Positions 1 through 14,179 of a stretch of DNA of 18,752 nucleotides are shown in pieces. Origin of the DNA: Candidatus Sericytochromatia bacterium (GTDB lineage Bacteria > Cyanobacteriota > Sericytochromatia > UBA7694). Made by a program: the position numbers and the translations under genes. Each line of letters opens with the position of its first letter. The first letter of the stretch is position 1. The stretch is from NCBI GenBank assembly GCA_018780035.1, contig JADMKE010000003.1:1-18752 (forward strand), in the 5' to 3' direction. The notes under the pieces are model-generated. The model saw nothing but the letters and a program-made list of their open reading frames with translations, had not been told where the DNA came from and ran no database searches.

Positions 1-13
1 CTTTTCATCCCAA

Positions 14-39
14 ATCCCCTGAAGGGGATGGGAATTCCC
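14..39 (-). terminator. Weak terminator-like hairpins downstream of the FlgG-like gene. One is ATCCCC-TGAA-GGGGAT (14-29) and the other is the palindrome GGGAATTCCC (31-40). There is no good U-tract.
   Basis: Inverted repeats read directly just 3' of the minus-strand stop. On the transcript they are followed by UUGGGAUGAAAAG, which is not U-rich. Confidence 0.15.
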
Positions 40-57
40 AGAGCGTTCTTTAAAAGC

Positions 58-1206
58 TCAATTGGATAAAGTGATCAATTTGCGCTCGCTGTCCACTGCC
101 AGATTAAAGCCCAATTCAGGCACGCAGCTTTCCAAATAACCAAGTTTGATCTGACCCAAACTGGCTTGCCCCGGTGGATAAGCCTTAACTGCGATTGATT
201 CTTCGCGATTGGGCAAAAGATAGGTGACTCCCCGGCTAAAACCCATGGCCTTGAGCGATTCAGGTTTCTCGGGTTTGGCCAATTGGAGTTGGCCCAATTT
301 TTGTGGCATCTGTGGATCGCTGCCTGACCAGACCGTACCGTCTGGATCCACTTTGAGCACCTTATGCCCTTTGGGCAAATAGAGTTGGGGCTCCAAGGGA
401 TAACCCTGTTCAGAGACCAACTGCCCATCTGGCGACTGCAGAATTTTGGCCTTGCGCGAAAACAGACGCTCACCGGTCAGCCGGTGGACAAAGACAAACA
501 GGCCCTGTCCATCGATGGCCCAATCCATGGGGTGTTCGGTTTTGCTCTGCTTTTCTGGGTGGGGAAATTGACACCCTGGCTGGGGGAGGGCGCTGACAGG
601 GGCCGAGAGATCTTCTAAAACGTTCTGGACGACAAAGCCAAAAAAGTTTTGGCCCGCTTGTCCTTGTTCAATTCGGCCAGAGTCGGGGGTGGTTTCATAA
701 TAACCAGGGAAATCCGGGTGGGCTTTGAGGGCCTCTGGATGAGGAACACGGCTCAGAGGAAATGCACCCAATTGTACGTCTTGCCCTTCAGCATTGAGCA
801 TTTTGGCATAGATACTGCCACTTTCGCTGACAAACCAAAATGCGCTCTCTTTGGGAAAGGTGATGGAGGGGTCAAAGAAAAAGCCCTCTTTTGTGACCAA
901 CTCGCCTTTGTCATTGATTTGAAAGGCCCCATTGCGGGTCAAATAGTGTTTGCCGTTGGACCGATCCAGAACCTGAAAGTAACCTTTGCCGTCGATGGCC
1001 CAGTCCAGCGCACGTTCACTGGCTTTCAGGGGGTGTTGTTTATAATCGGGGTCTGCAATTGCGCTTATGTCGGCAGGTACTTTCGCGGGCAAACCGGTAT
1101 TGACCAAAACGGTGCAGGCCATTTGCAGCGCGGCCAAAGAGCTGAACAGTATCATTTGCAAGGTCTGGCGTGTGCGGTGTGGACTGCGGGAAGAGGTTGA
1201 AGACAT
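58..1206 (-). CDS. Secreted protein made of two tandem FlgF/FlgG (flagellar rod/hook D1-core)-like modules. It has a Sec-type signal peptide and lacks the N-terminal flagellar rod helix. An alternative start at 1326 or 1155 is possible.
   Basis: The long minus-strand ORF is 58..1326. Two segments (aa ~108-205 and ~268-422 of the 422-aa ORF) match the FlgG core. Each begins DWAIDG(K/Q)G(Y/L)F and continues through ...TRNGAFQINDKGELVT..., ending in GY(Y/L)E-like C-terminal motifs (GYYETT, LGYLESCV). The N-terminal ANNxANxxTxGFK rod motif is absent. Starting from the internal Met at 1204-1206 gives n-region MSSTSSRSPHRTRQTLQ, h-region MILFSSLAALQMACTVLV, then NTGLPA|K. The TGA stop is at 58-60. 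There is no strong SD for any start. Confidence 0.6.
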   Translation of the reverse strand: MSSTSSRSPHRTRQTLQMILFSSLAALQMACTVLVNTGLPAKVPADISAIADPDYKQHPLKASERALDWAIDGKGYFQVLDRSNGKHYLTRNGAFQINDKGELVTKEGFFFDPSITFPKESAFWFVSESGSIYAKMLNAEGQDVQLGAFPLSRVPHPEALKAHPDFPGYYETTPDSGRIEQGQAGQNFFGFVVQNVLEDLSAPVSALPQPGCQFPHPEKQSKTEHPMDWAIDGQGLFVFVHRLTGERLFSRKAKILQSPDGQLVSEQGYPLEPQLYLPKGHKVLKVDPDGTVWSGSDPQMPQKLGQLQLAKPEKPESLKAMGFSRGVTYLLPNREESIAVKAYPPGQASLGQIKLGYLESCVPELGFNLAVDSERKLITLSN

Positions 1207-1242
1207 CGTGGATATACCCGTTTTTGCTGTAAATTCTCCCAG

Positions 1243-1262
1243 TGCAGGCGTATTGCAGGCGT
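1243..1262. promoter_or_regulatory. Direct repeat TGCAGGCGT x2 with 11-bp period, in the divergent promoter region between the FlgG-like gene and the MBL gene.
   Basis: tGCAGGCGTat tGCAGGCGTct at 1243-1251 and 1254-1262. This lies 37-58 nt upstream of the preferred minus-strand start at 1206. Confidence 0.25.
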
Positions 1263-1329
1263 CTAGCAGGAGTGTTTTAGTTATTCCCCAATTGCAGCGG
1301 TTATAACCACCCTCAGGTAAATTCACTTC

Positions 1330-1356
1330 GATTTGATTTTTGCCGCTGATTTGATT
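1330..1356. promoter_or_regulatory. Direct repeat GATTTGATT x2 with 18-bp spacing, about 40-65 bp upstream of the MBL start. A GGTTATAACC palindrome lies nearby at 1299-1308.
   Basis: GATTTGATT at 1330-1338 and 1348-1356. A TATCTA -10-like hexamer sits at 1361-1366 and the SD AAAGGAG at 1382-1388. Confidence 0.25.
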
Positions 1357-1394
1357 AGGCTATCTAAACGTGCTGTTTTTCAAAGGAGTTGTAT

Positions 1395-2243
1395 ATGTTA
1401 ACGTCTGGGTTAAAATCTGGGGTCATTTTTGCCCTTTTCACGCTGTCGGGACTGCTATCGCTATCTGGCACGTTCCAAGCCAATGCGGCCAATACAGCCC
1501 ATGCTGCCACCGAGATCTTGCGCCTGGACACAGGCATTGCCAATGTCTATTTGCTCAAGGGGCCCAAGTCATTTTTGATCGACAGCAGCTCAGTCGGCCA
1601 CGAGGCCGAGATTGAAGCTTGGCTCAAGGCCCACCAGACACCCGTTGAGAGCCTGGAAGCGATTATCTTGACCCACGGCCATGGCGATCACGCGGGTGGG
1701 GCGCTTAAATTGGGCAAATCGCGCGGCGTGCCGGTCTGGGTCGGAGCGGGAGACGCAGACATGTTGAATCGGGGCCGCAGCCGCGATTTAATTCCCACCA
1801 GTTTTTGGGCCGGGGTCTTGCGCCTCTTTGTGGATATGCCGTATACGCCCTTTCAAGCCGACCGCCTGATCACTGAACCGGTGGATCTCAGCCCCTTTGG
1901 CATTCAGGGCCGGGTCTTGCCGCTGCCGGGCCATACCTCTGGCTCGCTGGGGGTGGTGCTGGACGAAAAAAAACAGGCAGTGGTGGGTGATTTGTTCCGG
2001 GGAGGCGTCTTTCAAAACAGCACGCCCCGTGTGCATTTTTTCCACGAAGAGCGGCCCCAAACCATGTGGCAAATCTGGCATTTGCTTGAACACGAAGGCC
2101 TGCGCGAATTTTTTCCGGGGCATTTTGGCCCGCTCCAGGCGGCGGATCTCAAACGGGTCTTTTTTCCAAATGGGCATTTTAACTGGGCCATTCCTGCCGG
2201 GGGGCAGGATCCAGAAAGCTGCCCTTTTGAGACCGCCCTGTGA
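1395..2243 (+). CDS. Secreted metallo-beta-lactamase-fold hydrolase (MBL superfamily) with an N-terminal signal peptide.
   Basis: The HxHxDH zinc motif reads LTHGHGDHAGG. The N-terminus MLTSGLKSGVIFALFTLSGLLSLSGTFQANAA is a signal peptide. SD AAAGGAG sits 6 nt upstream of ATG 1395; the ORF track begins at TTG 1389, two codons earlier. A later GHTSGS His is typical of the MBL fold. TGA at 2241-2243. Confidence 0.85.
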   Translation: MLTSGLKSGVIFALFTLSGLLSLSGTFQANAANTAHAATEILRLDTGIANVYLLKGPKSFLIDSSSVGHEAEIEAWLKAHQTPVESLEAIILTHGHGDHAGGALKLGKSRGVPVWVGAGDADMLNRGRSRDLIPTSFWAGVLRLFVDMPYTPFQADRLITEPVDLSPFGIQGRVLPLPGHTSGSLGVVLDEKKQAVVGDLFRGGVFQNSTPRVHFFHEERPQTMWQIWHLLEHEGLREFFPGHFGPLQAADLKRVFFPNGHFNWAIPAGGQDPESCPFETAL

Positions 2244-2259
2244 TAGCGCTGCCTTGGGT

Positions 2260-2286
2260 GGCCTCCACAGCTGGGAAGCCATTTTT
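2260..2286 (+). terminator. Candidate intrinsic terminator after the MBL gene.
   Basis: GGCCTCC (2260-2266), loop ACAGCT, GGGAAGCC (2273-2280). The stem is GC-rich with one mismatch and is followed directly by ATTTTT (2281-2286). It starts 17 nt after the stop. Confidence 0.4.
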
Positions 2287-2392
2287 CGAGAATTGGCGCA
2301 GGAATTTCGGGCCTGCCCTGATGCCTAAGAACATTCGCTAGATTGACACTCCCGTCAAGGGGAGCGCTCTTGTAAAGTTCTGTGAACAGCGC

Positions 2393-2516
2393 TTGACCTG
2401 CTGTGCCCGAATCAGGGAAAATAGGTTAAGAATAAATTAAATTTTTGCGATGATTTTGTTTGAATTTGTTTTAAATTATTTGCAAAAATAATCAGTGAAT
2501 AATCAGATGGTATAAG
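2393..2516 (+). promoter_or_regulatory. AT-rich promoter region of the ether-lipid operon. It contains a candidate sigma70 -35/-10 pair, an extended -10-like element and an AATAATCAG direct repeat.
   Basis: TTGACC (2393-2398), a 17-18 nt spacer, then GAAAAT. TGgTATAAG lies at 2508-2516, only about 10 nt before the start codon. AATAATCAG occurs at 2487-2495 and 2498-2506 with 11-bp period. The A/T-rich stretch runs 2425-2520. Confidence 0.3.
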
Positions 2517-2526
2517 GTTGTTGGTG

Positions 2527-4395
2527 ATGGATAATCAGAAGAATGACTCAGCAAATAGTCGCTATGGCAGTGCTTTAGAGCGCTTGATGCCCGGTAGCGC
2601 ACCGACCCGGATTTTTCCGCCGGCGCCGGTGATTGGCAAAGATGAAATTGAGAGCCTTGGGGAATGGGGCTTCGAAGATTCCGGGTTTACGATCAATGAG
2701 CGCGGCCATGCCACTTTTACGGGGGGACGTTACACCCTCAGTGGTTTGGAACTGCCCTCGCTGGTGCCCTGGATTGGCGAAATGATGAAGGTGGAGATCA
2801 GCCGCGATGACATCCACCGCTCGGCAGGCACGCGCGAATTTCCAGCGGCCCGCCAAAATGCGGGCTTTGCTGAGGCCATTGCCCAGTTCTTAAAGCCCGA
2901 ACAAATCACCGCAGAGGGCGCGATTCGCCTGCGCCATGGCCACGGTCACACCCAAGAAGAAATGTACCAGGTCAATTATGGCATGTTGCCCCGCATCCCA
3001 GATTTGGTGGTGTTTCCGAACGAAGAGGAGCAGATCACAGCCTTGGTGGCTGCTGCCCTCAAACACAATGTGGTCCTCATTCCCTATGGCGGTGGCACCA
3101 GTGTCACCGAAGCCCTGGTCTGCCCCAGCAACGAAGAGCGGGTGATTGTCTCGGTTGACATGCAGGGCATGAACCGGATTCTCTGGATCGACCCCGTCAA
3201 CCGCATGGCCTGCATTCAAGCGGGCGCGGTGGGCCGCCATTTGGCCAAACAATTGGAGAGCTATGGCTTTACCATGGGCCACGAACCCGACAGCATCGAA
3301 TTTTCGACCCTCGGCGGCTGGATTGCCACCAACGCCAGCGGCATGAAGAAGAACAAATACGGCAATATTGAAGACATCGTGCTCGACGTGCATGTGGTCA
3401 CCACCTCCGGTGAACTGCGCCGCTCAGGCGTGGCCCCGCGGGAATCTGTTGGCACCGACCCCCGCCAGTGGATCTTTGGCTCTGAGGGCAATTTGGGGAT
3501 TATTACCTCAGCGGTGGTCAAACTCTTTGAATTGCCCGAAGCCCGCCGCTATGGCTCGATCCTCTTTCCCAGTTTCGAAGAGGGCACGGCTTTTATGTAC
3601 GAATTGGCCAAAGCGGGAAAGCCGCCTGCCAGCGTGCGTTTGGTCGACAATGTCCAGTTTCAATTTTCGATGGCACTCAAACCCGCCAGCACAGGTATGC
3701 GTGTGCTCAAGAAAAAGCTTGAAAAGATGATTGTGACCCAGCTCAAAGGCTTTGACCCGCTCAAAATGGTGGCCTGCACCCTGGTCTTCGAAGGCCGGGC
3801 CGATGAAGTGGCTGAGCAAGAGCGGCGCGTTTACAAAATAGCCAACCAACATGGCGGCATGAAAGCCGGGGCCGAAAATGGCCACAAAGGCTACGAATTG
3901 ACCTTTGGCATCGCCTATTTGCGCGATTGGATTATGAAACACTATCTTCTCGGGGAGTCCTTTGAAACCTCTGTGCCTTGGAGCCAATTGCTGGATCTCT
4001 GTGAAAAGGTCAAGGCCCGGATCAACAAAGAGCACCAGGCCTTAAAACTGCCGGGCAAACCCTTTGTCACGGCCCGCGTGACCCAGATCTACGATACCGG
4101 CGCCTGTGTCTATTTTTACCTGGGCGTCTCTTACAAAGGGGTTGAAAACCCCACCCAGACCTTCAAAGTGATCGAAGACGCGGCCCGCGAAGAGATTCTC
4201 AGCTGTGGCGGCTCGCTTTCTCACCACCATGGCATTGGCAAATTGCGTCAGCATTTTTTGCCCGAGATCATGAGTGAGACCCTGCTCAAATGGAATGCCC
4301 TGGTCAAAGAGGCGGTCGATCCCCAAAACGTCTTTGGGGTCGGCAATCTCTATCCCGTGGCAGAATTGGCACCCAAAGCCGGGGGCACTGTATGA
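2527..4395 (+). CDS. Alkyl-dihydroxyacetonephosphate synthase (alkylglycerone-phosphate synthase, AGPS), an FAD-linked oxidase. The start could instead be GTG 2524 or TTG 2518.
   Basis: The N-terminus has the AGPS-specific region LGEWGFEDSGFTINERGHATFTGGRYTLSGLELPSL, comparable to mammalian RWNGWGYxDSxF...GxRYxLSG. The FAD-binding PCMH fold reads VVFPNEEEQITALVAAALKHNVVLIPYGGGTSV. The C-terminal signature is HHHGIG. AAGG SD lies about 9 nt upstream. TGA at 4393-4395. Confidence 0.9.
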   Translation: MDNQKNDSANSRYGSALERLMPGSAPTRIFPPAPVIGKDEIESLGEWGFEDSGFTINERGHATFTGGRYTLSGLELPSLVPWIGEMMKVEISRDDIHRSAGTREFPAARQNAGFAEAIAQFLKPEQITAEGAIRLRHGHGHTQEEMYQVNYGMLPRIPDLVVFPNEEEQITALVAAALKHNVVLIPYGGGTSVTEALVCPSNEERVIVSVDMQGMNRILWIDPVNRMACIQAGAVGRHLAKQLESYGFTMGHEPDSIEFSTLGGWIATNASGMKKNKYGNIEDIVLDVHVVTTSGELRRSGVAPRESVGTDPRQWIFGSEGNLGIITSAVVKLFELPEARRYGSILFPSFEEGTAFMYELAKAGKPPASVRLVDNVQFQFSMALKPASTGMRVLKKKLEKMIVTQLKGFDPLKMVACTLVFEGRADEVAEQERRVYKIANQHGGMKAGAENGHKGYELTFGIAYLRDWIMKHYLLGESFETSVPWSQLLDLCEKVKARINKEHQALKLPGKPFVTARVTQIYDTGACVYFYLGVSYKGVENPTQTFKVIEDAAREEILSCGGSLSHHHGIGKLRQHFLPEIMSETLLKWNALVKEAVDPQNVFGVGNLYPVAELAPKAGGTV

Positions 4396-7070
4396 GCGCA
4401 GACCAACCCGGATACCGGGTCTTGCTGACGGGGGTGACAGGCTTTGTTGGCAAGGTGGTGCTCGAAGAGCTCTCGCGCCGGGCTGAAAGTCTCAAGCTTG
4501 AACAGATCTACGTCTTGATTCGGGCCAAAAAAAACCAGGCCGCAGAGGTGCGTTTTCGCGAAGAGGTGGTCGCCTCTGAATGTTTCAGTGCCCTGCCTGC
4601 GGGCTGGGAGAGCCGGGTCAAGGTGCTTTCGGGTGATTTGACCGAATGGAAGCTCGATCCCGCCACGCAACAGGAATTGCAAACTGAGTTGACCCATGTG
4701 ATTCACTGCGCCGCTTCGGTGGCCTTTGACCTGCCTGTCAAAGAGGCCGCCGAGGCCAATATTGTCAGTGCCTTAAACCTGTTAGAGGTGGTGCGCGGCT
4801 GTCGCAAATTGCAGCGCTTTGTTGATGTTTCCACCGCTTATGTCTCGCCCCACTCAGGCAATGATCTCACCCCGATTCCCGAAGCGCTGGTGCCCTTGCC
4901 TGAACCGGCCGAACTGCTGTTTAAAGGCATTATGGACGGCTCGCTCGAAGAAAAGGCCCTCTTGCAAAAATTGGGCTACCCCAATACCTATACCCTCACC
5001 AAATGCCTGAGTGAGCACCTGTTAACCGAGCGCAAAGGGGAGATTCCCCTGGCGATTGTTAGGCCCAGTATTATTTCTGCCAGTTGGCAATACCCCCGGC
5101 CCGGCTGGATCGACAGCTATGCCGCTTTTGCGGGTTTTGTCGGCCTGATTGGCGCGGGCATGCTCAAATGTGTCGTGGCCCAAGAAGAAACGGTTTTGGA
5201 CATTGTGCCCTGTGATGTGGTCTCCCACCGCATTATTGAGACCGCTTTTCAGCCCACCGGCACTCCCGCACTCGTGCAACACGTGGTCTCGGGCGTGGAC
5301 CAGGGCTGCCGGATCGACACCTGCCTGGCGGGCATCGAAAACTATTTCCGCCGCCACCCTGTGCAGGGCTGGCCGGGGCTCAAAGCGATCAGCAACGGTG
5401 GCTCAATCGCCATTCAAGATTGGCTGCAGCATAAATTGCCGACGATGGTTGCCAGCGCCTGGTTTGGCCTGCAGGGCAAGACCCGGCAAAAGCGCCAAAT
5501 TCAAAAAGTGGTCGAAAAAATTCAGTATCTCAACGATGCTTTTCCCTATTTTACCCACAATACCTTTCGCTTTGAATCGGCCACACCCATGGCTTTGACC
5601 GGTTTTGATGCCCGTCTCTATATTGAGCGGGTCTGCAAAGGCGTGCACACCCATCTGATGCGCGCCAAACCTTCAGAAACCCTGCTGGGTGGGGCGGATC
5701 ATCGCTACCCCAAAGGCGATTTGGCCTGGGCCCAGCAACAGCCCCGTGGCAATTGGGCGATTCGCACCGCTGCCTATGTCGTGCGCAAAGGCCTGCGCCG
5801 CAGCAACGATCGGATTACCTTTGACCGCGAGAGCTTTGAAAAGGCACTCAGCCAGGTTCCTGCTGAGAGCCTTTTGATTCTGGTGCCCAGCCACCGCAGT
5901 TATATGGACTTTGTGCTCTGCTCTTATTTGGTCTTTGCCCATCCCGAGTTAAATATTGCCATTCCCCGCATTGCCGCTGCCAGCGACTTTGGCAAATTGC
6001 CGCTGCTGGGCTGGTTTTTGCAAAAGACCCACGCCTTTTATATCCGCAGGGGCACAGGCAAAGCTGATCCCGAATTGACAGAGCGGATTCAAACCCTGGT
6101 CTCTCAGAACGAGACCTTGGAATTCTTTATCGAAGGCACCCGCAGCCGCTCGCGCCAGTTTTTGGCGCCCAAACGTGGCATTCTGCGGGCCTTGCAGCAA
6201 ACGGGTGTGAGCTGTACGCTTTTGCCGATTGCGATTAGCTACGATCTCGTGCCCGAAGCGCGGCCTTTTTTACAGGAATTGCAAGGCGGTGCCAAAGAGC
6301 GCATGAAAATGCGCACCTTTCTCAGGTGGACAGGCCGTTTGGCCGCAGGAAAAATTCGCTTGGGCCAGGTGCATTTGAGCTGTGGCACGCCCCTGAATTT
6401 GGATGGCGAGACAGATATTCACGCCCTCAGCCACTCGATTGTGGGTGAGTTGCAAGACAAAACCGCTGTTTCGACTTTGCACCTGCAGGCCTTTTTGCAG
6501 CAACATCCCGTAGAAGGGGTGGATTTGGAATGGCTGCAAAAAGCGATTCAAGCCCGTGGCGGTCAGGTGATCGCAAGCCCCTTGCAAGATGTGCAGCGGG
6601 TGGATTGGATCACCGAGCGCACCATGCGTTACCACTGGAAACACTATTTTTACCCCGATGTTTTGGCTTTGTTGCCGGGGCATCCGGTTTTTACCCGGCA
6701 TACTCAAGACAATGCCTATTTGCCGGTTTGGAAACAAGCGGCGCCAAGCAACCCGCGTGAAGACGCGATCTTAATGCGGCTTTTACATGCCCTGTTTGAA
6801 TCCATGACCCGCGACTATACCCGCATTGTCGATCTCGCCCGCCAGCAAGGCCACTTGCCGATCAAGGCCGAGGCCATTGTCGCCGCATCCCCTGAGATTT
6901 TTCTGCCCGTGGCCGAAGAGGTGCTCAAAGAGCTCTGCGAACGCGCTTTGATGAAGCCCGATCCAGCGGGGCAACGGCTGGTGCCCGGCGAAAACTGGGA
7001 AGATATCCGGGCCTTTGCCCTGGCCTGTGGCTGGCATGAGGCCTTAAACCGGGTCAAAACCGCCTCATGA
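4392..7070 (+). CDS. Bifunctional fatty acyl-CoA reductase (FAR, NAD_binding_4/male-sterility type) fused to a glycerol-3-P/DHAP acyltransferase (HX4D) domain. It is ElbD/MXAN_1675-like.
   Basis: ATG at 4392-4394 overlaps the AGPS TGA (ATGA), and GGGGG lies 6 nt upstream. The N-terminal Rossmann motif is LLTGVTGFVGKVV, with a YxxxK-type region YPNTYTLTK. The C-terminal acyltransferase has motif I HRSYMD (5893-5910) and motif III FIEGTRSRS (6125-6151). Confidence 0.9.
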   Translation: MSADQPGYRVLLTGVTGFVGKVVLEELSRRAESLKLEQIYVLIRAKKNQAAEVRFREEVVASECFSALPAGWESRVKVLSGDLTEWKLDPATQQELQTELTHVIHCAASVAFDLPVKEAAEANIVSALNLLEVVRGCRKLQRFVDVSTAYVSPHSGNDLTPIPEALVPLPEPAELLFKGIMDGSLEEKALLQKLGYPNTYTLTKCLSEHLLTERKGEIPLAIVRPSIISASWQYPRPGWIDSYAAFAGFVGLIGAGMLKCVVAQEETVLDIVPCDVVSHRIIETAFQPTGTPALVQHVVSGVDQGCRIDTCLAGIENYFRRHPVQGWPGLKAISNGGSIAIQDWLQHKLPTMVASAWFGLQGKTRQKRQIQKVVEKIQYLNDAFPYFTHNTFRFESATPMALTGFDARLYIERVCKGVHTHLMRAKPSETLLGGADHRYPKGDLAWAQQQPRGNWAIRTAAYVVRKGLRRSNDRITFDRESFEKALSQVPAESLLILVPSHRSYMDFVLCSYLVFAHPELNIAIPRIAAASDFGKLPLLGWFLQKTHAFYIRRGTGKADPELTERIQTLVSQNETLEFFIEGTRSRSRQFLAPKRGILRALQQTGVSCTLLPIAISYDLVPEARPFLQELQGGAKERMKMRTFLRWTGRLAAGKIRLGQVHLSCGTPLNLDGETDIHALSHSIVGELQDKTAVSTLHLQAFLQQHPVEGVDLEWLQKAIQARGGQVIASPLQDVQRVDWITERTMRYHWKHYFYPDVLALLPGHPVFTRHTQDNAYLPVWKQAAPSNPREDAILMRLLHALFESMTRDYTRIVDLARQQGHLPIKAEAIVAASPEIFLPVAEEVLKELCERALMKPDPAGQRLVPGENWEDIRAFALACGWHEALNRVKTAS

Positions 7071-8104
7071 GTACACACCCTTCGCATTATCTAATCACCG
7101 GCGCCACGGGCTTTCTCGGTCGCCATGTGATTGAACAATTGGCCGAACAGCAGTTGGCCTTTTTGCCGCTGGTGCGCGATCCACAAACCTGGAAAAAGCG
7201 CGATTGGGGCAAAAGTCTGCAGGCGGCTCAGGTCGTCACAGGGGGGTTAAACGACCTCTCTGCTTGGCAAGACAGCCTTCCGGCTTTGGATGGCATCTTT
7301 CACCTTGCCGCGCTTGTGCGCCACAGCCGCAGCGATGATTTGGCGCTAAAAGAGCTTTATGCCGCCAATGTGCAGGGCACGCTCAATATGGTCAAACTGG
7401 CAGCCTTAAAAAAATGCCGCTTGGTCTTTGTCTCGACCTCGGGCACGGTGGGTGTGTTTAACAGCAAACAGGAATGGGCCGATGAACATTCGCCTTTTTG
7501 TGAGACCATGATCAGCGATTGGCCCTATTACGATTCCAAATTGCAGGCCGAGCGCGAAGCGCGCAAACTGGCCCAGGAACTGGGCGTGGAGTTGGTGATT
7601 ATTCGCCCGCCGGTATTGCTCGGTCCGGGCGACCACCGCTTTCGTTCCACCGGCCATATTATTCGCTATCTGCGCAAACGCCTGCCTTTTCTCATTCGCG
7701 GGGGCATGCATTTTATCGACATCCGCGATGCGGCAGCCGCTTTGATTCGCGCCATGCAACACGACAGTCCCCAGCCGGTTTACCACCTCAGTGGTGTGGC
7801 CTGCAGCATCGACAGTTTTTTTCGCATGGTCGAAAAGGCGTCAGGGGTGGGGCCTGTGCCGCCCCAATTGCCCGCGCCACTGGCCCTGGCCATTGCCCGC
7901 ACGGCCAGCGGCCTGAGCAAGGTTGCTGGCCTGCACGAGAGCCCGCTGCCCGATCCGGTGGTTGTCGAAATGGCGGGCAAATACTGGGATGTGCGCTCGC
8001 GTTATGCGGCCCAAGACCTGGGTTTTCAGAACCGCTTTGGCCAAGACACGATCAACGACACCGTCGATTGGCTCAAATTACACCATCCTCAATTGCGATC
8101 CTGA
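7067..8104 (+). CDS. Extended short-chain dehydrogenase/reductase (NAD-dependent epimerase/dehydratase, 3beta-HSD-like fold). Candidate acyl/alkyl-DHAP reductase.
   Basis: ATG at 7067 overlaps the upstream TGA (ATGA). The NAD-binding motif is ITGATGFLGRHV and the catalytic pair is YYDSKLQAE. TGA at 8102-8104. Confidence 0.85.
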   Translation: MSTHPSHYLITGATGFLGRHVIEQLAEQQLAFLPLVRDPQTWKKRDWGKSLQAAQVVTGGLNDLSAWQDSLPALDGIFHLAALVRHSRSDDLALKELYAANVQGTLNMVKLAALKKCRLVFVSTSGTVGVFNSKQEWADEHSPFCETMISDWPYYDSKLQAEREARKLAQELGVELVIIRPPVLLGPGDHRFRSTGHIIRYLRKRLPFLIRGGMHFIDIRDAAAALIRAMQHDSPQPVYHLSGVACSIDSFFRMVEKASGVGPVPPQLPAPLALAIARTASGLSKVAGLHESPLPDPVVVEMAGKYWDVRSRYAAQDLGFQNRFGQDTINDTVDWLKLHHPQLRS

Positions 8105-9423
8105 ACCTGAATCCGGCAGCGTTTGACGCCCCGGCCCTCGATCTCACTGACCTGAATTTCAAAGTCGCCGTATTGGAGCCGGTCGCCGATTTGGGGGGCG
8201 TGGCCCAATAGCAGCAGCACCAGGCCTCCGATGGTCTCTACTTCTGGGTGTTCCAGCGCTTTTCCGAGAAATTCTTCCAGAGCGTGTAAACGCAGGTTTG
8301 CCGAGACCTCGATCTGAAATTCCCCTTGCACCTCGATCTCGGGTTTAACTGTGGTTTTGTTCTTGGGGGTGTCCAGAATTTGGGCACAGATATCTGTCAG
8401 GGTTAAAATCCCTGCGGTGCCGCCGTATTCATCCAAAACCCCAGCCATTTGCACATGGGCCTGTTGCAAAACCTGTAAGACGATTTCCAAGGGGGCCGAT
8501 GCAGACACAAAGGGCAGGCTGCGAATCACTTCAGGGTGTTTGTTCAGATCGTGCAGATGGGATTCCGGCGCGGTCTGCGTAAGCAAAATTAAGAGATCGC
8601 GCACATGTACAAATCCGACAATTTCGTCCAGGTTTTCGCCGTAGACCGGATAGCGGCTGTGAATCCGATCAGACAAAACCGCGCGGATTTTATCCGGGCT
8701 GGCATTTAAGGCCAGACCCTGGGTCTGAACCCGTGGGATCATAATATCTCGGGCTTTGAGGTCGCTAAAGGCCAACAGATCTTGCAAAATATCTGCGGTT
8801 TCTTCGCTGAGCAGGCCTGCGTTTTCGCTCTCTTCGACGATATAGTGGAAATCATCGAGGGTGGTCTGGTTCTCTGATTCAGGCGACCCTTCCAGTTTCA
8901 GCATTTTGAGTAAAAAATTCCCGATTTGATTGAGCAAATAGACCAGGGGAAACATCAGCCGTTTAAACAAGAACATCACGGGTGCCACCCGCAGAGCCGT
9001 TTGGCCAGCCCTTTGCAAGGCCAGGGTTTTGGGCACCATTTCGCCCAAGACAACATGGAAATACGTCAGCCCAGCAACGGCCAGAATACCTGCCACGCTG
9101 TGGCTGGCCAAGATCTGCAAAAACCCCACTTCGGCAAAGAAATGCAAGAGGCCTTCTGCCAAGACATATTCGCCATACATGCCAAGTCCCAGGCTGGCGA
9201 GGGTGATCCCCAATTGGGCCGTGGCGATATACGCATCTTGGGCCTGGGTGGAGGTTTTGGTCTCGATTAATTTTTGCAGAATCCCGCTCTGTTTTGCTGT
9301 TGCCAATTGCTGTAATTCCAGCGTTGAAGTCATCACAATGGCAAATTCGGCGGCCACAAACAAAGCGTTTAAAAACAACAAGAGCAGAATCAGAAAGGCC
9401 GGTAAAAGCACGGTTTCAAACAT
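8089..9423 (-). CDS. CNNM/HlyC/CorC-family membrane protein (DUF21 TM domain, CBS pair, CorC_HlyC C-terminal domain). Putative Mg2+/Co2+ efflux or hemolysin-family protein; copy 1.
   Basis: The N-terminal TM region is MFETVLLPAFLILLLLFLNALFVAAEFA. CBS-pair and CorC_HlyC signatures are present (ARDIMIPRV..., VLDEYGGTAGILTLTDI...). Its 3' end overlaps the SDR gene 3' end by 16 bp, convergently. Confidence 0.9.
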   Translation of the reverse strand: MFETVLLPAFLILLLLFLNALFVAAEFAIVMTSTLELQQLATAKQSGILQKLIETKTSTQAQDAYIATAQLGITLASLGLGMYGEYVLAEGLLHFFAEVGFLQILASHSVAGILAVAGLTYFHVVLGEMVPKTLALQRAGQTALRVAPVMFLFKRLMFPLVYLLNQIGNFLLKMLKLEGSPESENQTTLDDFHYIVEESENAGLLSEETADILQDLLAFSDLKARDIMIPRVQTQGLALNASPDKIRAVLSDRIHSRYPVYGENLDEIVGFVHVRDLLILLTQTAPESHLHDLNKHPEVIRSLPFVSASAPLEIVLQVLQQAHVQMAGVLDEYGGTAGILTLTDICAQILDTPKNKTTVKPEIEVQGEFQIEVSANLRLHALEEFLGKALEHPEVETIGGLVLLLLGHAPQIGDRLQYGDFEIQVSEIEGRGVKRCRIQVQDRN

Positions 9424-10738
9424 CGCTTTGGCCCTCTGCTGGATGGGGGGTATAGAGCACGGTTAAGATAATGGGGCCAGCCATTGCTTCGATTTGTATT
9501 TCTCCATGGGTATCCGACCAACGATCCCCTGGCGTGGGCAGGGTTGGGAATTGTTCGATTAAAAATCCGCTGACTGTTGTGGTGTGCTCTGAAATCCAGC
9601 GAATGCCGATCTGATCTTTGAGTCCTTCGAGACGCATGCGGCCTGGAATTTGGTAGCGACCCGCTCCCAAAGGGATGCAGAGGCTGCGCAGGGGTTTAAA
9701 TTCGTCGTTTAAATTGCCAGTTAATTCCCCCAGGATATCTTGCAGCGTCAAGAGGCCTGATACCCCCCCGTGTTCGTCGACCACCAGGGCCATCGATGCT
9801 TTGTGCTCTCGCAATTTGAGCAGGGCTCTTTCGACTGTGAGATCGCGGGGAATGGCCAATATGGGCTCCAAGAGCGGCTCTATTTCTGTAATCTGGCCCT
9901 GGCGGGCAAAGATTTGTACACAGTGTTTGACCGAAATGCTGCCGATTACCTGCTCGGGGGATTCACGCCAGACCGGCAGACGGGCAAAGGGAATTTCATG
10001 CATCCAGTCCAACATTTGTGCTGGGCTGAGCTTGAGATCCAGCATTTGGATTTCTTGGCGGGGTACCATTAGCTCGCGCACTGTGCGTTTGCCCAAATGC
10101 AGGGCTTTGCGCAGACGGCGAGAAATGCCTTTATCGAGCACACCCACTTTTTGGCTTTCGCGCAAGAGATAGTCGATTTCGGCAGGGGAATGGATGTGTT
10201 GATGGCTCTCTTGGCTCAGGCCGATCCGCCGACAAATAAAATGGCCGCTGCCATTGAGGACAGCCAAGGGCAGAGCCAAGAGCCAGAGTGAAATGCGCAT
10301 CGGCCAAACGGTATACAGCGCAAGCGGGGTCGGATAGCGCAGCGCCAGAGATTTGGGTAAAATTTCACCCAGGATCATCTGCAAAGCTGTCAAAACCAAT
10401 AAGACAAAACTGGCTGCGCCATATTCGGCAATTTGTGCAGGTAAAAAGCCCTTGAGCCAAGGAGCCAGGGCCTTTTGGCCGTAGGCCCCCAGAATCAAGC
10501 TGGAAAGGGTAATCCCCACCTGGCAGGCGGCAATATATTGGTCAAAACGCTGGGGGCTTTGCAAAATGTTGAGAAAGTGTTTTGCCAAAGGATGGCCCTC
10601 TTCAGCCAGGGCCTGGATCCGGGGCTGACGCACACTGACGGAGGCAAATTCAGCGGCCACAAAGAGGGCGTTGACCCCGATCAGCAATAACAGAACCAGC
10701 AGGACGATCAAGACATGATTTCTTTGGCCATTTGCCAT
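9416..10738 (-). CDS. CNNM/HlyC/CorC-family membrane protein (DUF21, CBS pair, CorC_HlyC); tandem paralog, copy 2.
   Basis: The N-terminus is MANGQRNHVLIVLLVLLLLIGVNALFVAAEFA. CBS and CorC signatures are VRELMVPRQEI... and VVDEHGGVSGLLTLQDI.... The stop overlaps the copy-1 start by 8 nt, and the 5' end overlaps the GNAT 3' end by 31 nt. Confidence 0.9.
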   Translation of the reverse strand: MANGQRNHVLIVLLVLLLLIGVNALFVAAEFASVSVRQPRIQALAEEGHPLAKHFLNILQSPQRFDQYIAACQVGITLSSLILGAYGQKALAPWLKGFLPAQIAEYGAASFVLLVLTALQMILGEILPKSLALRYPTPLALYTVWPMRISLWLLALPLAVLNGSGHFICRRIGLSQESHQHIHSPAEIDYLLRESQKVGVLDKGISRRLRKALHLGKRTVRELMVPRQEIQMLDLKLSPAQMLDWMHEIPFARLPVWRESPEQVIGSISVKHCVQIFARQGQITEIEPLLEPILAIPRDLTVERALLKLREHKASMALVVDEHGGVSGLLTLQDILGELTGNLNDEFKPLRSLCIPLGAGRYQIPGRMRLEGLKDQIGIRWISEHTTTVSGFLIEQFPTLPTPGDRWSDTHGEIQIEAMAGPIILTVLYTPHPAEGQSDV

Positions 10739-11235
10739 TCATCGAGATATTCACCGTCTACCCACAGCGCTTTGGGCTCGTTGCCATATTGAACAAAGCC
10801 CAGACGTTGGTACAGGCGAATGGCGGCGGTGTTGTAGGCCCCGACGCCGAGTTTAACGATCTGAATGCCGTGGACTTTGCCCCACTCAAGGCAGGCGGTG
10901 ATCAGTTTTTCGGCCAGACCCTGTCCTTGGTAAGCGGCTTTGACATAAATGCCAACCAAGAGGGCATTGTGGCGCTCTTTGGGTGATTCACCCCGTACCA
11001 GCCCAGCCGTGCCCACGAGACCTTCGGGGGTCTCTGCCAGATAGATGATTTGATTGGGGCTGTTGCAAGCGGATGAGACGCGCTGGGTCCAAAAATCCAT
11101 CGGACGGGTAACTTGATCTGCGTAATCGGAACTAAAAGCTTTGGGGTACAATTTCAGGCCTTCCAGACGCAGGTGTCGATAGGCTTCAGCATCGTCTGAT
11201 TGAATGGCGCGAAGGTGGATGGGGCTTTCTGACAT
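10708..11235 (-). CDS. GNAT-family N-acetyltransferase, 175 aa.
   Basis: The acetyl-CoA motif A is VKAAYQGQGLAEKLI and the N-terminal region reads IHLRAIQSDDAEAY. A strong SD (GAAAGAGGAAAT) sits directly upstream of ATG 11233-11235. The longer ORF-track start at 11349 would overlap the upstream gene and lacks an SD. Confidence 0.85.
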   Translation of the reverse strand: MSESPIHLRAIQSDDAEAYRHLRLEGLKLYPKAFSSDYADQVTRPMDFWTQRVSSACNSPNQIIYLAETPEGLVGTAGLVRGESPKERHNALLVGIYVKAAYQGQGLAEKLITACLEWGKVHGIQIVKLGVGAYNTAAIRLYQRLGFVQYGNEPKALWVDGEYLDEWQMAKEIMS

Positions 11236-11257
11236 ATTTCCTCTTTCGAGCATGGGG

Positions 11258-11650
11258 CTAGGGCATTGCGAGATTGGGGGGTTCGATTGGGCTGGCACTC
11301 GCTGGCTTTTCAACAGGACCTGCGCTTTGAGGCTCATTGTTGGGGCCATTTTGCGGCTTTTTTTTGTTTTTTGACTTCGCCTGTTTGTTGGGTTCTTTCT
11401 GCTGATGCGCTTTTGGCTCGGTTTTGTTTTTTCGGGCTGCTTGGATCTCGGCCGAAGAGGTTTCAGCCACCCGCCAAAAAGGATCGTCTAAGGTCACTTT
11501 GCTTTTGGGCAGGTCCAATTGCAGCGCTTTGGCGCCAGCCAGGATGATGCGGGCCGCGGCTTCTTGAATTTTAACATCGTAGTTGATCGCCACATGTCGA
11601 ATCAGCCTGTGAATTTCTGGTGAAACAGGAATCGTTTTGCTGGTGGTCAT
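11258..11650 (-). CDS. Small ribbon-helix-helix (CopG/Arc/omega-like) DNA-binding protein with a roughly 55-aa K/P/N/Q-rich disordered C-terminal tail, 130 aa.
   Basis: N-terminal KTIPVSPEIHRLIRHVAINYDVKIQEAAARIILAGAKA fits the beta-strand, helix, helix pattern of RHH. The tail is KNKTEPKAHQQKEPNKQAKSKNKKKPQNGPNNEPQSAGPVEKP. GGGGG SD lies about 9 nt upstream of ATG 11648-11650. TAG at 11258-11260 lies 22 nt before the GNAT start. Confidence 0.55.
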   Translation of the reverse strand: MTTSKTIPVSPEIHRLIRHVAINYDVKIQEAAARIILAGAKALQLDLPKSKVTLDDPFWRVAETSSAEIQAARKNKTEPKAHQQKEPNKQAKSKNKKKPQNGPNNEPQSAGPVEKPASASPIEPPNLAMP

Positions 11651-11662
11651 ACTTCAGCCCCC

Positions 11663-11710
11663 TTATATTTTTATAGCATTATAGCTTTATATTCTTATAA
11701 AATTATAAAA
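11663..11710. repeat. Iteron-like array of six tandem 8-bp units TTATAnnn, a candidate operator for the RHH protein. It overlaps the promoter of the RHH-GNAT(-CorC) transcription unit.
   Basis: TTATA begins at 11663, 11671, 11679, 11687, 11695 and 11703. The units are TTATAttt, TTATAgca, TTATAgct, TTATAttc, TTATAaaa, TTATAaaa. The same 143-bp intergenic region also has TTGCGATT x2 (11721-11728, 11749-11756) and the palindrome AAGTGCACTT (11778-11787). Confidence 0.6.
11678..11707 (-). promoter_or_regulatory. Candidate sigma70 promoter for the RHH gene on the minus strand: -10 TATAAT, 17-bp spacer, -35 TTATAA.
   Basis: The minus strand reads ...tttTTATAAgaatataaagcTATAATgctat.... The TATAAT is the reverse complement of 11678-11683, about 28 nt upstream of the ATG. 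The promoter is embedded in the TTATA array. Confidence 0.35.
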
Positions 11711-11793
11711 TAATCATCGATTGCGATTCAAGCCAGAACAGAGTTATTTTGCGATTGTCTTGGTTTTTGGTTAGCGAAAGTGCACTTGAGAGA

Positions 11794-12846
11794 CTAACAA
11801 ATCCGGGGCAATTGTTCTCCGCTGAGCAAATCCAGTAACCGTGTCGTGCCGTACGGATTGTGTAAGATCACACGGGGGGCACCTGTTTGAACCACGCCAA
11901 TTTGGGCGGCGTTCCTGCCCAAGGGATGGCTGCGCAGACACGCCAAAGCCGCTTCTGCTTGAGCTTGGGGCAAAAAGATCAGCATTTTGCCTTCATTGGC
12001 CACATAAAGCGGGTCAAATCCCAGAATTTCACAGGCGCTTGCCACAGCCGGGTCAATCGGAATCTGAGCGGCTTTGAGCTCAATTTGCAGCTCTGCTTGG
12101 GCTGCGATTTCGTTCAGCACACTGGCCACGCCGCCCCGTGTGGGATCGCGCAGGCAGTGTAATTCAAAACCTGCAGTTAAAAGTTCACTGACCAATTCAT
12201 GGAGGGGAGCACAATCACTTTTAATCGGACCTTCAAAGGCCAGACCTTCCCGTTCAGCCATCACGGCCATGCCGTGGGCCCCAATTTCCCCGTTGATCAA
12301 AATGGCGTCACCGACTTTGACCTGTTGGGGCCCAATTTCAAGTGCTGTCTCGATCAGGCCAATGCCAGCGGTGTGAATAAACAGGCCATCGCCTTTGCCT
12401 TTTTCGACCACCTTGGTATCCCCTGTGACCAACAAGACGCCACAGCGCTTGGCTGCTTCAGCCATGCTGGCCACCACCCGCTGCAAAACGGCCATTTCAA
12501 GCCCCTCTTCCAGAATCAGGCCGACACTTAAATAAAGCGGTTTGGCCCCACACATGGCCAGATCGTTGACCGTGCCAAAGACCGCCATTGAACCAATATC
12601 TCCACCTGCAAAAAACAGGGGATGGACCACATAGGAATCACAGCTAAAGGCCAGCACCTGATTGCCCAGCACCAAACGGGCGCCATCGTGTGCGGCGGCC
12701 AAAAAAGGGTTGGCAAAAGCGGGGAAAAGGGTGTCCTGCAACAGGTTTTGCATCAGCCGCCCGCCGCCGCCATGGGCCAGCAGGACGCGTTCGGGCTGCT
12801 CAAAAGGCAGGGGGCAATTCAGTTCAAATGCGGGGGGGTCTGTCAT
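11794..12846 (-). CDS. hypE: [NiFe]-hydrogenase maturation protein HypE (AIR-synthase-related carbamoyl dehydratase).
   Basis: ATG 12844-12846 overlaps the hypD TGA (ATGA). N-terminus is [33 protein letters not shown]. The C-terminus ends ...PRIC, the conserved C-terminal Cys. The ORF-track 5' extension to 12999 is rejected. Confidence 0.92.
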
Positions 12847-13934
12847 GGCGTGACTCTCCTGTATTGGTAATAGGCGGCACAGGCCCCTTCCGTCGAGACC
12901 ATGGTTGCTCCAAGTGGGCGTTCTGGGGTACAGCGGGTGCCAAAAGCCGGGCATTCCAAGGGCTTTTTTAGGCCGCTTAAAATTTCGCCGCTGAGGCACT
13001 CTGCGGGTTCAAGCACTTGCAACTCTTCCAAACCAAAGCGCAGGGTGGCGTCAAAGTGGCGATAGTTGCGATTCAAACTGAGTCCACTGTCAGGCAATTC
13101 ACCCAGTCCCCGCCATTTGCGGGGCACCACCTCAAAAACCTGTTTAAGCATGGCTTGGGCCTGTAAATTGCCCTCTGATTTCACCACCCGGTCGTAGGCA
13201 TTGGCGACGCTGTGTTGGCCGTTTTCGAGTTGCTCCAAACAGACCCAGACGCCTTTGAGCAGATCGACAGGCTCAAAACCAGTGACCACAATCGGGACTC
13301 GGTATTTCTCTGCCAGCGGGCCGTAGGCCTGCAGACCCATCACTGTGCAAACATGGCCAGCGGCCAAAAATCCCTGCACCTGGCAATTGGGCGCACTCAA
13401 CAGGGCTTCCAAAGCGGGGGGCACAAGCACATGAGAAACCAAGAGCGAAAAATTGGTCAGGCCTTCGCGCTCCGCTTGATACACCGCCATGGCATTGGCC
13501 GGGGCGGTGGTTTCAAAGCCCACGGCAAAAAACACCACTTCGCGCTGGGGGTTGTTGCGGGCCAAAGCCAGGGCATCCAGCGGGGAATAAACCATGCGAA
13601 TATCTGCCCCTTGGGCTTTGAGGCTGCGCAGATCCTGCCTGCTGCCGGGCACCCGCAGCATATCCCCAAAGGTGCAAAATAGGACCCCAGCTTGGGCTGC
13701 GATCTGATGTGCCCGATCGAGCATTTCCAGCGGCGTCACACAGACCGGGCAGCCAGGCCCGTGTAACAATTCAACCCCTGGGGGCAGCAGTTGATCGAGT
13801 CCATATTTGACGATTGCATGGGTCTGCCCACCACAGACCTCCATCAAGGTCCAGGGGCGGGTCACCGTTTTGGCGATCTGTTCAGCCAAGGCCCGAACCC
13901 CAGCCGGATCGCGGTATTCGTCTAAATATTTCAT
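12843..13934 (-). CDS. hypD: [NiFe]-hydrogenase maturation factor HypD.
   Basis: Signature motifs [13 protein letters not shown] and FETT are present. ATG 13932-13934 overlaps the hypC stop (ATGA). Confidence 0.95.
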
Positions 13935-14179
13935 GGCTTCAGCTCTTTTTCAATTTGGATCAGGGTCTGCAAATCCGCCAAGACCTTTTCCGCTGCTTCG
14001 GGGTCCAAAAGCGAAAGCGCAAAACCCACATGCACAAGCACATAGTCCCCCACTTGGGCCTCGGGCACATAGGCCAAACTGATCTCTTTGATGATTCCGC
14101 CAAAACTCACTTTGGCCGGGAGCAGCAGGTCATCGGGGTCGATGATTGCGATAATTTCACCGGGCAGGGCTAAACACAT
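13931..14179 (-). CDS. hypC: Hydrogenase assembly chaperone HypC/HupF, 82 aa.
   Basis: The start [10 protein letters not shown] is the HypC MCL(A/G)IP signature. ATG at 14177-14179 lies 4 nt after the hypF stop. Confidence 0.9.

Follow-up and report, generated by a model that had tools for sequence, protein, structure and literature searches.

Which enzyme reduces alkyl-dihydroxyacetone phosphate (alkyl-DHAP) in bacteria that carry an alkyl-DHAP synthase? The product of this synthase (AGPS) is a ketone and must be reduced before the sn-2 position is acylated (PMC13256971, PMC9131029), and this reduction is the one step of aerobic ether-lipid and plasmalogen synthesis that has no assigned bacterial enzyme. 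The question is raised by an 18,752-nucleotide stretch of DNA from Candidatus Sericytochromatia bacterium (contig JADMKE010000003.1, positions 1 to 18,752; hereafter the window), in which a gene for an extended short-chain dehydrogenase/reductase (SDR) directly follows the genes for AGPS and for FARAT, a protein with a fatty acyl reductase (FAR) and an acyltransferase (AT) domain. From its family, its residues and its genomic surroundings, we propose that this SDR is probably an acyl/alkyl-DHAP reductase (EC 1.1.1.101) of the extended-SDR type, non-orthologous to the known enzymes. The genes, their junctions and the operon boundaries lie in the window as follows.

2244 to 2517, forward strand: intergenic region of 274 nt upstream of AGPS, likely the operon promoter region (open reading frame (ORF) map)
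2518 to 4395, forward strand: gene 1, AGPS (alkyl-DHAP synthase), an FAD enzyme of 625 amino acids (PF01565 and PF02913; structure-database matches)
4392 to 4395, forward strand: AGPS/FARAT start/stop overlap, ATGA, in the sequence ...ctgtATGAgcgc...
4392 to 7070, forward strand: gene 2, FARAT, 892 amino acids (PF07993 and PF01553)
7067 to 7070, forward strand: FARAT/SDR start/stop overlap, ATGA, in the sequence ...gcctcATGAgtaca...
7067 to 8104, forward strand: gene 3, extended SDR of 345 amino acids, candidate acyl/alkyl-DHAP reductase (ORF map, Pfam and fold model)
8089 to 9423, reverse strand: convergent CNNM/CorC gene marking the operon end, its 3' end overlapping the 3' end of the SDR gene by 16 nt

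As read from the sequence, the ATG of the SDR gene (7067-7069) overlaps the TGA of FARAT (7068-7070), and the second ATGA overlap (4392-4395) indicates that all three genes are coupled. The initial annotation had described the SDR as a third gene coupled in this way to the FAR-AT gene, and had recognized in it an extended SDR with ITGATGFLG and YYDSK motifs; the overlap is confirmed, and both motifs were located, with Y154 and K158 falling on the catalytic YxxxK in the alignment to dihydroflavonol reductase (DFR). Given the 274-nt gap before AGPS and the convergent CNNM/CorC gene that overlaps the SDR end, the three genes form one operon. A promoter and terminator scan of positions 2200-8400 gave counts that were not above shuffle expectation, with a weak sigma-70-like match at 2393-2422. 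The mechanical ORF start of FARAT (4290) is 102 nt too early and lies inside the AGPS gene; the true start is at 4392, since homolog alignments begin at this ATG and it forms part of the ATGA overlap. The operon proteins are 97-99% identical to those of the Candidatus Blackallbacteria metagenome-assembled genome (MAG) JBPXJQ010000049.1 and 87-96% identical to those of Sericytochromatia MAGs, which places the window in a non-photosynthetic relative of the cyanobacteria.

The first two genes would account for most of the pathway. AGPS gave a full-length match to the mammalian alkyldihydroxyacetonephosphate synthase 4bby (E = 2.4e-166) and a match to the Dictyostelium enzyme 2uuu (E = 1.7e-85), and by this measure gene 1 is a genuine alkyl-DHAP synthase. 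FARAT contains a FAR1-type fatty acyl reductase domain (residues 12-279; PF07993, 1e-57) and a PlsB/GNPAT-like acyltransferase domain (residues 487-616; PF01553, 2e-23), with PlsB models matching residues 492-672. The FAR domain would produce a fatty alcohol from acyl-CoA or acyl-ACP, the acyltransferase domain would form 1-acyl-DHAP, and AGPS would swap the acyl group for the alcohol to give 1-O-alkyl-DHAP. The SDR would then deliver a hydride from NADPH to the sn-2 carbonyl through S123, Y154 and K158, yielding 1-O-alkyl-sn-glycerol-3-phosphate, which ordinary PlsC-type acyltransferases and head-group enzymes could use. The four catalytic domains predicted for the operon would thus match the four required activities, with the SDR as the only one left unassigned, and its putative chemistry (NADPH, Ser/Tyr/Lys, carbonyl to alcohol) fits alkyl-DHAP reduction.

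We next examined the SDR protein itself. At least 80 species genomes have an ortholog (47-97% identity), and at E <= 1e-30 the protein is matched by 155 clusters formed at 50% identity, so it is not a chance ORF. PF01370 (Epimerase) is its best Pfam family (1.3e-30, 107 bits), of the extended-SDR type, and an AlphaFold2 model built with 91 homologs gave a confident extended-SDR fold (pLDDT 96.1) with TM-scores of 0.7-0.8 to extended SDRs in Foldseek. The protein carries the hallmarks of that type, namely GxxGxxG (G12/G15/G18), S123/T124, Y154/K158 and a two-domain fold. Its functional residues map to the forward strand of the window as listed here.

7094 to 7120, forward strand: ITGATGFLG dinucleotide-binding motif, residues 10-18 (G12, G15 and F16 invariant and G18 nearly so among the 91 homologs)
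7175 to 7177, forward strand: R37 in 'LVRD', at the end of beta-2 (nearly invariant; marks NADPH preference in DFR and ketoreductase relatives)
7322 to 7330, forward strand: H86-S87-R88, clade-specific basic residues after beta-4 (H86 and R88 invariant in the homolog alignment)
7433 to 7438, forward strand: S123-T124, catalytic Ser/Thr of the SDR triad (S123 invariant, T124 nearly invariant)
7526 to 7540, forward strand: Y154-Y155-D-S157-K158 (YYDSK), catalytic YxxxK, residues 154-158 (invariant; aligns to the Y-F-V-S-K of DFR)
7604 to 7651, forward strand: R180 and the GPGDHRFRST loop (residues 186-195), clade signature (R180, D189, H190 and R193 invariant; R191 and T195 nearly so)

R37 and its VRD align to the VRD of DFR (2c29, 8fem) and of GinKR1 (9m3k), and several relatives have been solved with NADP, including cinnamoyl-CoA reductase (CCR; 5tqm), kavalactone reductase (6nbr) and DFR (8fem); NADPH is therefore the probable cofactor. 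NAD+-dependent epimerases normally carry an acidic residue at the R37 position. The clade-specific basic residues H86, R88, R180, H190, R191 and R193 lie in the loops after beta-4 and beta-6, which in extended SDRs line the substrate site, and we propose that they may hold the substrate phosphate. The positions of H86-S87-R88 are occupied by L/W/V in Gox2253 and by R/P in the next subfamily. Most of the closest ~30 cluster representatives (at least ~40% identity) keep the R180 and loop signature with scattered substitutions, while it changes to N180/S193 in HpnA-like neighbours; a PDPVV-EMA motif is a further marker of the clade.

Searches with the 91-sequence profile placed the SDR among reductases. 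The closest PDB match was Gox2253 (3wj7; 5e-37, full length), followed by the NADPH-dependent ketoreductase GinKR1, dihydroflavonol reductases and cinnamoyl-CoA reductases (1e-19 to 1e-22), then by thioester-reductase domains such as those of AusA and MxaA, and nucleotide-sugar enzymes appeared only after these (1e-9 to 1e-14). Foldseek ranked the families similarly, with UDP-glucose epimerases at comparable TM-scores, as expected of a shared fold. Gox2253 and the plant DFRs, CCRs and ketoreductases (2c29, 4r1s, 9m3k, 6nbr) are thus the closest solved structures (TM 0.72-0.80) and share the catalytic triad and VRD, but they differ in sequence (19-26% identity) and, where the substrate is known, act on soluble phenylpropanoids; Gox2253 apart, the similarity to the plant reductases lies mostly in the first ~190-235 residues. 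Among NCBIfam models, only HpnA, SdmB and OleD aligned over the full length (residues 8-339). Membership in these families was rejected, as the scores were 154.8 bits against a cutoff of 367.65 for HpnA (TIGR03466), 75 against 600 for SdmB (NF052578) and 51 against 580 for OleD (NF042422). The neighbouring subfamilies also score best to these three lipid-related models (HpnA scores of representatives, 160-248 bits), which indicates that it belongs to an extended-SDR branch oriented towards lipids. OleD uses NADPH to reduce a keto group in a long-chain lipid. The SDR shares D218-R220-D221, E301-M302-W307 and R323 with the HpnA-like/SdmB/OleD clade, whereas the signature residues H86, R88, R180, H190, R193 and H240 are replaced in HpnA-like neighbours and the genomic context differs. 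The SDR forms its own clade within the lipid-oriented extended SDRs.

To place the gene in its wider genomic setting, we ran a pattern scan over GTDB species, each represented by one genome, with a query alignment of 22 SDR homologs. This yielded 80 loci kept of 111 relatives (M. xanthus is not among the 80), in which AGPS and FARAT were detected by tblastn with the window proteins. AGPS was co-directional with the SDR and within ~4 kb in all 65 informative loci, and 60 of the 65 had the order AGPS-FARAT-SDR; outside these 65, 12 loci break off within the FARAT gene that precedes the SDR, and 3 lack any DNA upstream. None of the 80 contradicts the AGPS-SDR linkage. In most loci the SDR start either overlaps the FARAT stop or is separated from it by no more than a few tens of bases; the flanking genes vary. 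According to the submitters' labels, the loci come from Sericytochromatia, Myxococcota, Gemmatimonadota, Nitrospira, Gammaproteobacteria (Woeseiaceae) and Spirochaetales, and a look-up of encoding contigs added a Marinimicrobia ortholog with the same layout. Three operon-carrying MAGs are labelled 'uncultured Enterobacteriaceae' (L016, L017, L085); this label looks wrong given their 48-54% identity and their resemblance to marine and sediment lineages.

Departures from the common order were few. In two loci the SDR directly follows AGPS with no FARAT within 8 kb (L021:1021-4106, a Sandaracinaceae MAG; L084:5835-9023, a Spirochaetales MAG, in which an alpha/beta hydrolase gene lies upstream of AGPS). 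In three Gemmatimonadota loci (L074, L055, L086) the SDR lies ~3-4 kb upstream of AGPS, in a rearranged cluster (L074:7992-16887) that reads SDR (forward strand), ORF X, CDP-alcohol phosphatidyltransferase (PF01066), AGPS, FARAT and ORF Y. ORF X (~480 amino acids) is on the opposite strand and ORF Y (~265 amino acids) is conserved; neither has a Pfam match, and ORF Y also adjoins the cluster in L020, L091, L037, L043 and L056.

In the converse direction, we anchored a metagenome scan on FARAT and counted as informative the 13 loci in which FARAT was full-length, of the bacterial type and followed by ~0.9 kb of DNA or more; the SDR was immediately downstream in 11 of them. The other two, AGPS-FARAT loci that have no SDR downstream (L089, L090), were rejected as counter-examples, as they have the Gemmatimonadota layout of L074, L055 and L086: a CDP-alcohol phosphatidyltransferase lies upstream of AGPS in both, L090 has an ORF X ortholog, and the contigs end before the expected SDR position. 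Further variants with no nearby SDR were a locus with a frameshifted FARAT (L132) and one with a distant FARAT and neither partner (L114). In two other metagenome loci (L118, L137), a distant FARAT (29% identity) precedes AGPS (41-45%), in reverse order, and no SDR was detected; their very long ORFs, and a SET-domain gene nearby in L137, suggest a possibly eukaryotic or divergent lineage.

The SDR domain also occurs fused to its partners. In the Nitrospira MAG SBBF01000041.1 (L015:5517-9029), a single ORF of 1170 amino acids joins FAR, AT and SDR, and a search of 1.84 billion cluster representatives gave a second FAR-AT-SDR protein, of 1113 amino acids (P0121, L167:1252-4593), encoded directly after AGPS. 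As the assemblies are independent and the two proteins 77% identical, the fusion is real, and an assembly artefact in L015 was rejected on this ground. Three further representatives fuse FAR to the SDR with no acyltransferase domain, at 757 (P0122, L168:5001-7274), 888 (P0123, L169:3499-6165) and 855 amino acids (P0142, L170:1065-3632); the first two directly follow AGPS, and the gene beside the third was not recognized as AGPS. The 1113-amino-acid FAR-AT-SDR protein and the 757- and 888-amino-acid fusions retain every signature residue of the window clade, and the 855-amino-acid fusion deviates at several positions. In the latter, F also stands in place of the catalytic Y154; an alignment offset or an inactive domain may explain this. 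Together, linkage, translational coupling and fusion make it close to certain that the SDR belongs to the ether-lipid pathway.

Operons of this type have been published in Myxococcus xanthus, where MXAN_1676 (AGPS), MXAN_1675 (FAR plus GNPAT-like) and MXAN_1674 are described (PMC9131029, PMC13012113); there MXAN_1674 is labelled only "NAD-dependent epimerase/dehydratase family" and has no role assigned to it, and as late as 2026 the operon genes were listed as 'to be named'. By description, the window operon has the same three genes, order and Pfam families, and many Myxococcota MAGs have SDR orthologs (49-55% identity to the window SDR) at an MXAN_1674-type position. The window operon adds a member to this known type and extends it to a new lineage, that of a Sericytochromatia/Blackallbacteria-like genome. 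M. xanthus also has the elbA-E genes, in which ElbE and ElbA bear the same 'NAD-dependent epimerase/dehydratase' label and stand beside ElbD, a FAR plus acyltransferase protein (likened by description; PMC9131029); unlike the window operon, the Elb route has no AGPS.

All proven acyl/alkyl-DHAP reductases, namely yeast Ayr1p, mammalian DHRS7B (PexRAP) and DHRS7, and Dictyostelium ADHAPR c2/c3, are classical SDRs (PMC13256971, PMC7517302, PMC13200781). The window SDR shares with the Ayr1/DHRS7B enzymes the SDR superfamily, the Tyr/Lys active site, the proposed reaction and the place in the pathway after AGPS. Activity is proven for the eukaryotic enzymes, whereas the window SDR is a candidate from sequence. 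No match to the classical family PF00106 (adh_short) was obtained at E <= 0.001, and only extended-SDR families matched; the SDR is therefore not a member of the Ayr1/DHRS7B family, though it may catalyse the same reaction. If its function is as proposed, it would be a non-orthologous replacement of the Ayr1/DHRS7B-type enzymes. Our literature searches, which did not extend to the primary 2014 elb/MXAN_1676 paper, found neither a bacterial alkyl-DHAP reductase nor a heterologous reconstitution of an AGPS operon. The statement of the initial annotation that a bacterial enzyme for the step had not been clearly assigned agrees with PMC9131029 and PMC13012113.

What, then, does the SDR reduce? The initial annotation held it to be the missing 1-alkyl-DHAP reductase and not an unrelated sugar epimerase. 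The second half of this claim stands. An ordinary nucleotide-sugar epimerase or dehydratase that lies beside lipid genes by chance would explain the source annotations ('NAD-dependent epimerase/dehydratase family' or 'nucleoside-diphosphate-sugar epimerase') and the UDP-glucose 4-epimerases with similar TM-scores among the Foldseek matches. However, galE and the dTDP-, CDP- and GDP-sugar models score 22-46 bits against cutoffs of 224-365, in the N-terminal Rossmann part only (galE TIGR01179, 46 against 262 at residues 9-180; dTDP-glucose dehydratase, 27.5 against 365; the CDP model, 26.7 against 278; rmlD, 22 against 224), and profile E-values favour reductases by at least 8 orders of magnitude. 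R37 occupies a position that is normally acidic in NAD+-dependent epimerases, and neither a 65/65 linkage across several phyla nor the FAR and FARAT fusions would be expected of chance. We therefore rejected the epimerase reading, already disfavoured and now highly improbable, on family scores and genomic context. Neither of the two results that the initial annotation would have taken as a refutation was obtained: the closest characterised relatives by PDB profile, NCBIfam and Foldseek are NADPH carbonyl reductases and lipid-acting SDRs, and the gene keeps its place beside AGPS and FARAT homologs from both anchors. The first half of the claim is supported as a hypothesis, with the identity of the carbonyl less firm.

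It is on this last point that the evidence must be weighed with care, and several observations count against alkyl-DHAP as the substrate. Linkage and fusion support pathway membership more firmly than they indicate which carbonyl is reduced, and the SDR has no family-level homology to Ayr1/DHRS7B, being an extended protein of 345 amino acids with a C-terminal substrate domain. It passes the PF07993 threshold and resembles CCR and the thioester reductases of nonribosomal peptide and polyketide synthases, and the FAR-SDR fusions that lack an acyltransferase would fit a two-step acyl-to-alcohol reductase just as well. No MXAN_1674 phenotype is reported in the literature examined, and three metagenome loci (L105, L112, L115) have AGPS followed by a FAR-only gene with no SDR nearby, an architecture in which the remaining pathway steps must be encoded elsewhere. 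Some of these points lead to the main alternative, a role of the SDR as a fatty-aldehyde (or acyl-thioester) reductase, which would finish the FAR reaction to provide the fatty alcohol for AGPS. We consider this unlikely. In its favour, PF07993 scores 71 bits on the SDR (Pfam cutoff 20.1), where it overlaps the stronger PF01370 (107 bits), and the thioester-reductase model TIGR01746 reaches 80 bits, though far below its cutoff of 213. The structural and sequence neighbours include CCR, cinnamyl-alcohol dehydrogenase 2 and aldehyde reductases; a neutral aldehyde, on the other hand, would not lead one to expect six clade-specific invariant basic residues. In eukaryotic FAR and FARAT proteins, FAR1-type domains (PF07993 plus Sterile) form the alcohol unaided, which counts against the need for such a partner, and the two AGPS-SDR pairs with no nearby FAR do so as well. 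An aldehyde reductase would also leave the obligatory alkyl-DHAP reduction with no enzyme. From M. xanthus, PMC9131029 reports an ElbD-linked i15:0 aldehyde with no fatty alcohol detected, and a lowering of ether lipids upon inactivation of the SDR-family gene elbE, both of which favour the aldehyde alternative.

Quite unlikely, too, is another redox step of lipid tailoring in the same pathway, with a head group or some other keto- or hydroxy-lipid intermediate as a conceivable target, as in HpnA-, SdmB- or OleD-like enzymes. The nearest NCBIfam neighbours do act on hopanoids, sterols and 2-alkyl-3-oxoalkanoates, and the Gemmatimonadota cluster adds a CDP-alcohol phosphatidyltransferase as well as the conserved ORFs X and Y, which lack Pfam matches. 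The path from alkyl-DHAP to a standard alkyl-acyl phospholipid, however, needs no other redox step; the tight 1:1 linkage is with AGPS and FARAT while accessory genes vary; and the HpnA, SdmB and OleD scores (155/368, 75/600 and 51/580 bits) are far below the cutoffs. Reduction of alkyl-DHAP remains our preferred assignment, and the clade defined by H86/R88/R180 and the GPGDHRFRST loop probably comprises bacterial acyl/alkyl-DHAP reductases non-orthologous to Ayr1/DHRS7B.

The rest of the window encodes genes of other kinds. The gene 274 nt upstream of AGPS (1389-2243, forward strand) encodes a protein of the metallo-beta-lactamase fold whose N-terminus has an apparent signal-like hydrophobic stretch, and a 422-amino-acid protein further upstream (58-1326, reverse strand) matches PF22692 (flagellar hook/rod FlgE/F/G D1 domain) twice and has a repeated 'DWAIDGxGxF' motif. 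Downstream on the reverse strand are two tandem paralogous CNNM/CBS/CorC_HlyC transporter-type genes (8089-10738; 444 and 440 amino acids), then a hydrogenase-maturation cluster (11794-16554) with HypF (14170-16554), HypC (13931-14266), HypD (12843-13934) and an AIR-synthase-like, HypE-type gene (11794-12999), and a PEP synthase/PPDK-family gene upstream of that cluster (16485-18743). The mechanical ORFs of the hydrogenase-maturation region overlap by up to ~150 nt, which suggests that some of the listed starts are too early.

If the assignment is true, AGPS-FARAT-SDR would be a complete and portable three-gene cassette for the aerobic synthesis of 1-O-alkyl-glycerol-3-phosphate, present in at least 7 bacterial lineages, among them non-photosynthetic relatives of cyanobacteria, with condensation to FAR-AT-SDR or FAR-SDR polypeptides in some lineages. 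The eukaryotic reductase gene took decades to find and the activity is still only partly accounted for (PMC13256971). Confirmation would complete the bacterial AGPS route with a minimal set of three genes and four activities, which could be transferred to Escherichia coli for ether-lipid production, and would provide a sequence marker to predict alkyl-ether-lipid producers in metagenomes, of relevance to alkyl glycerol ethers as environmental biomarkers. It would also bring a case of non-orthologous replacement to the debate on a myxobacterial origin of eukaryotic plasmalogen synthesis (PMC13012113), in which FAR, GNPAT and PEDS1 would apparently have been transferred and the reductase not. 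Overall, these findings bring an unassigned step of ether-lipid synthesis in bacteria within reach of a direct test.

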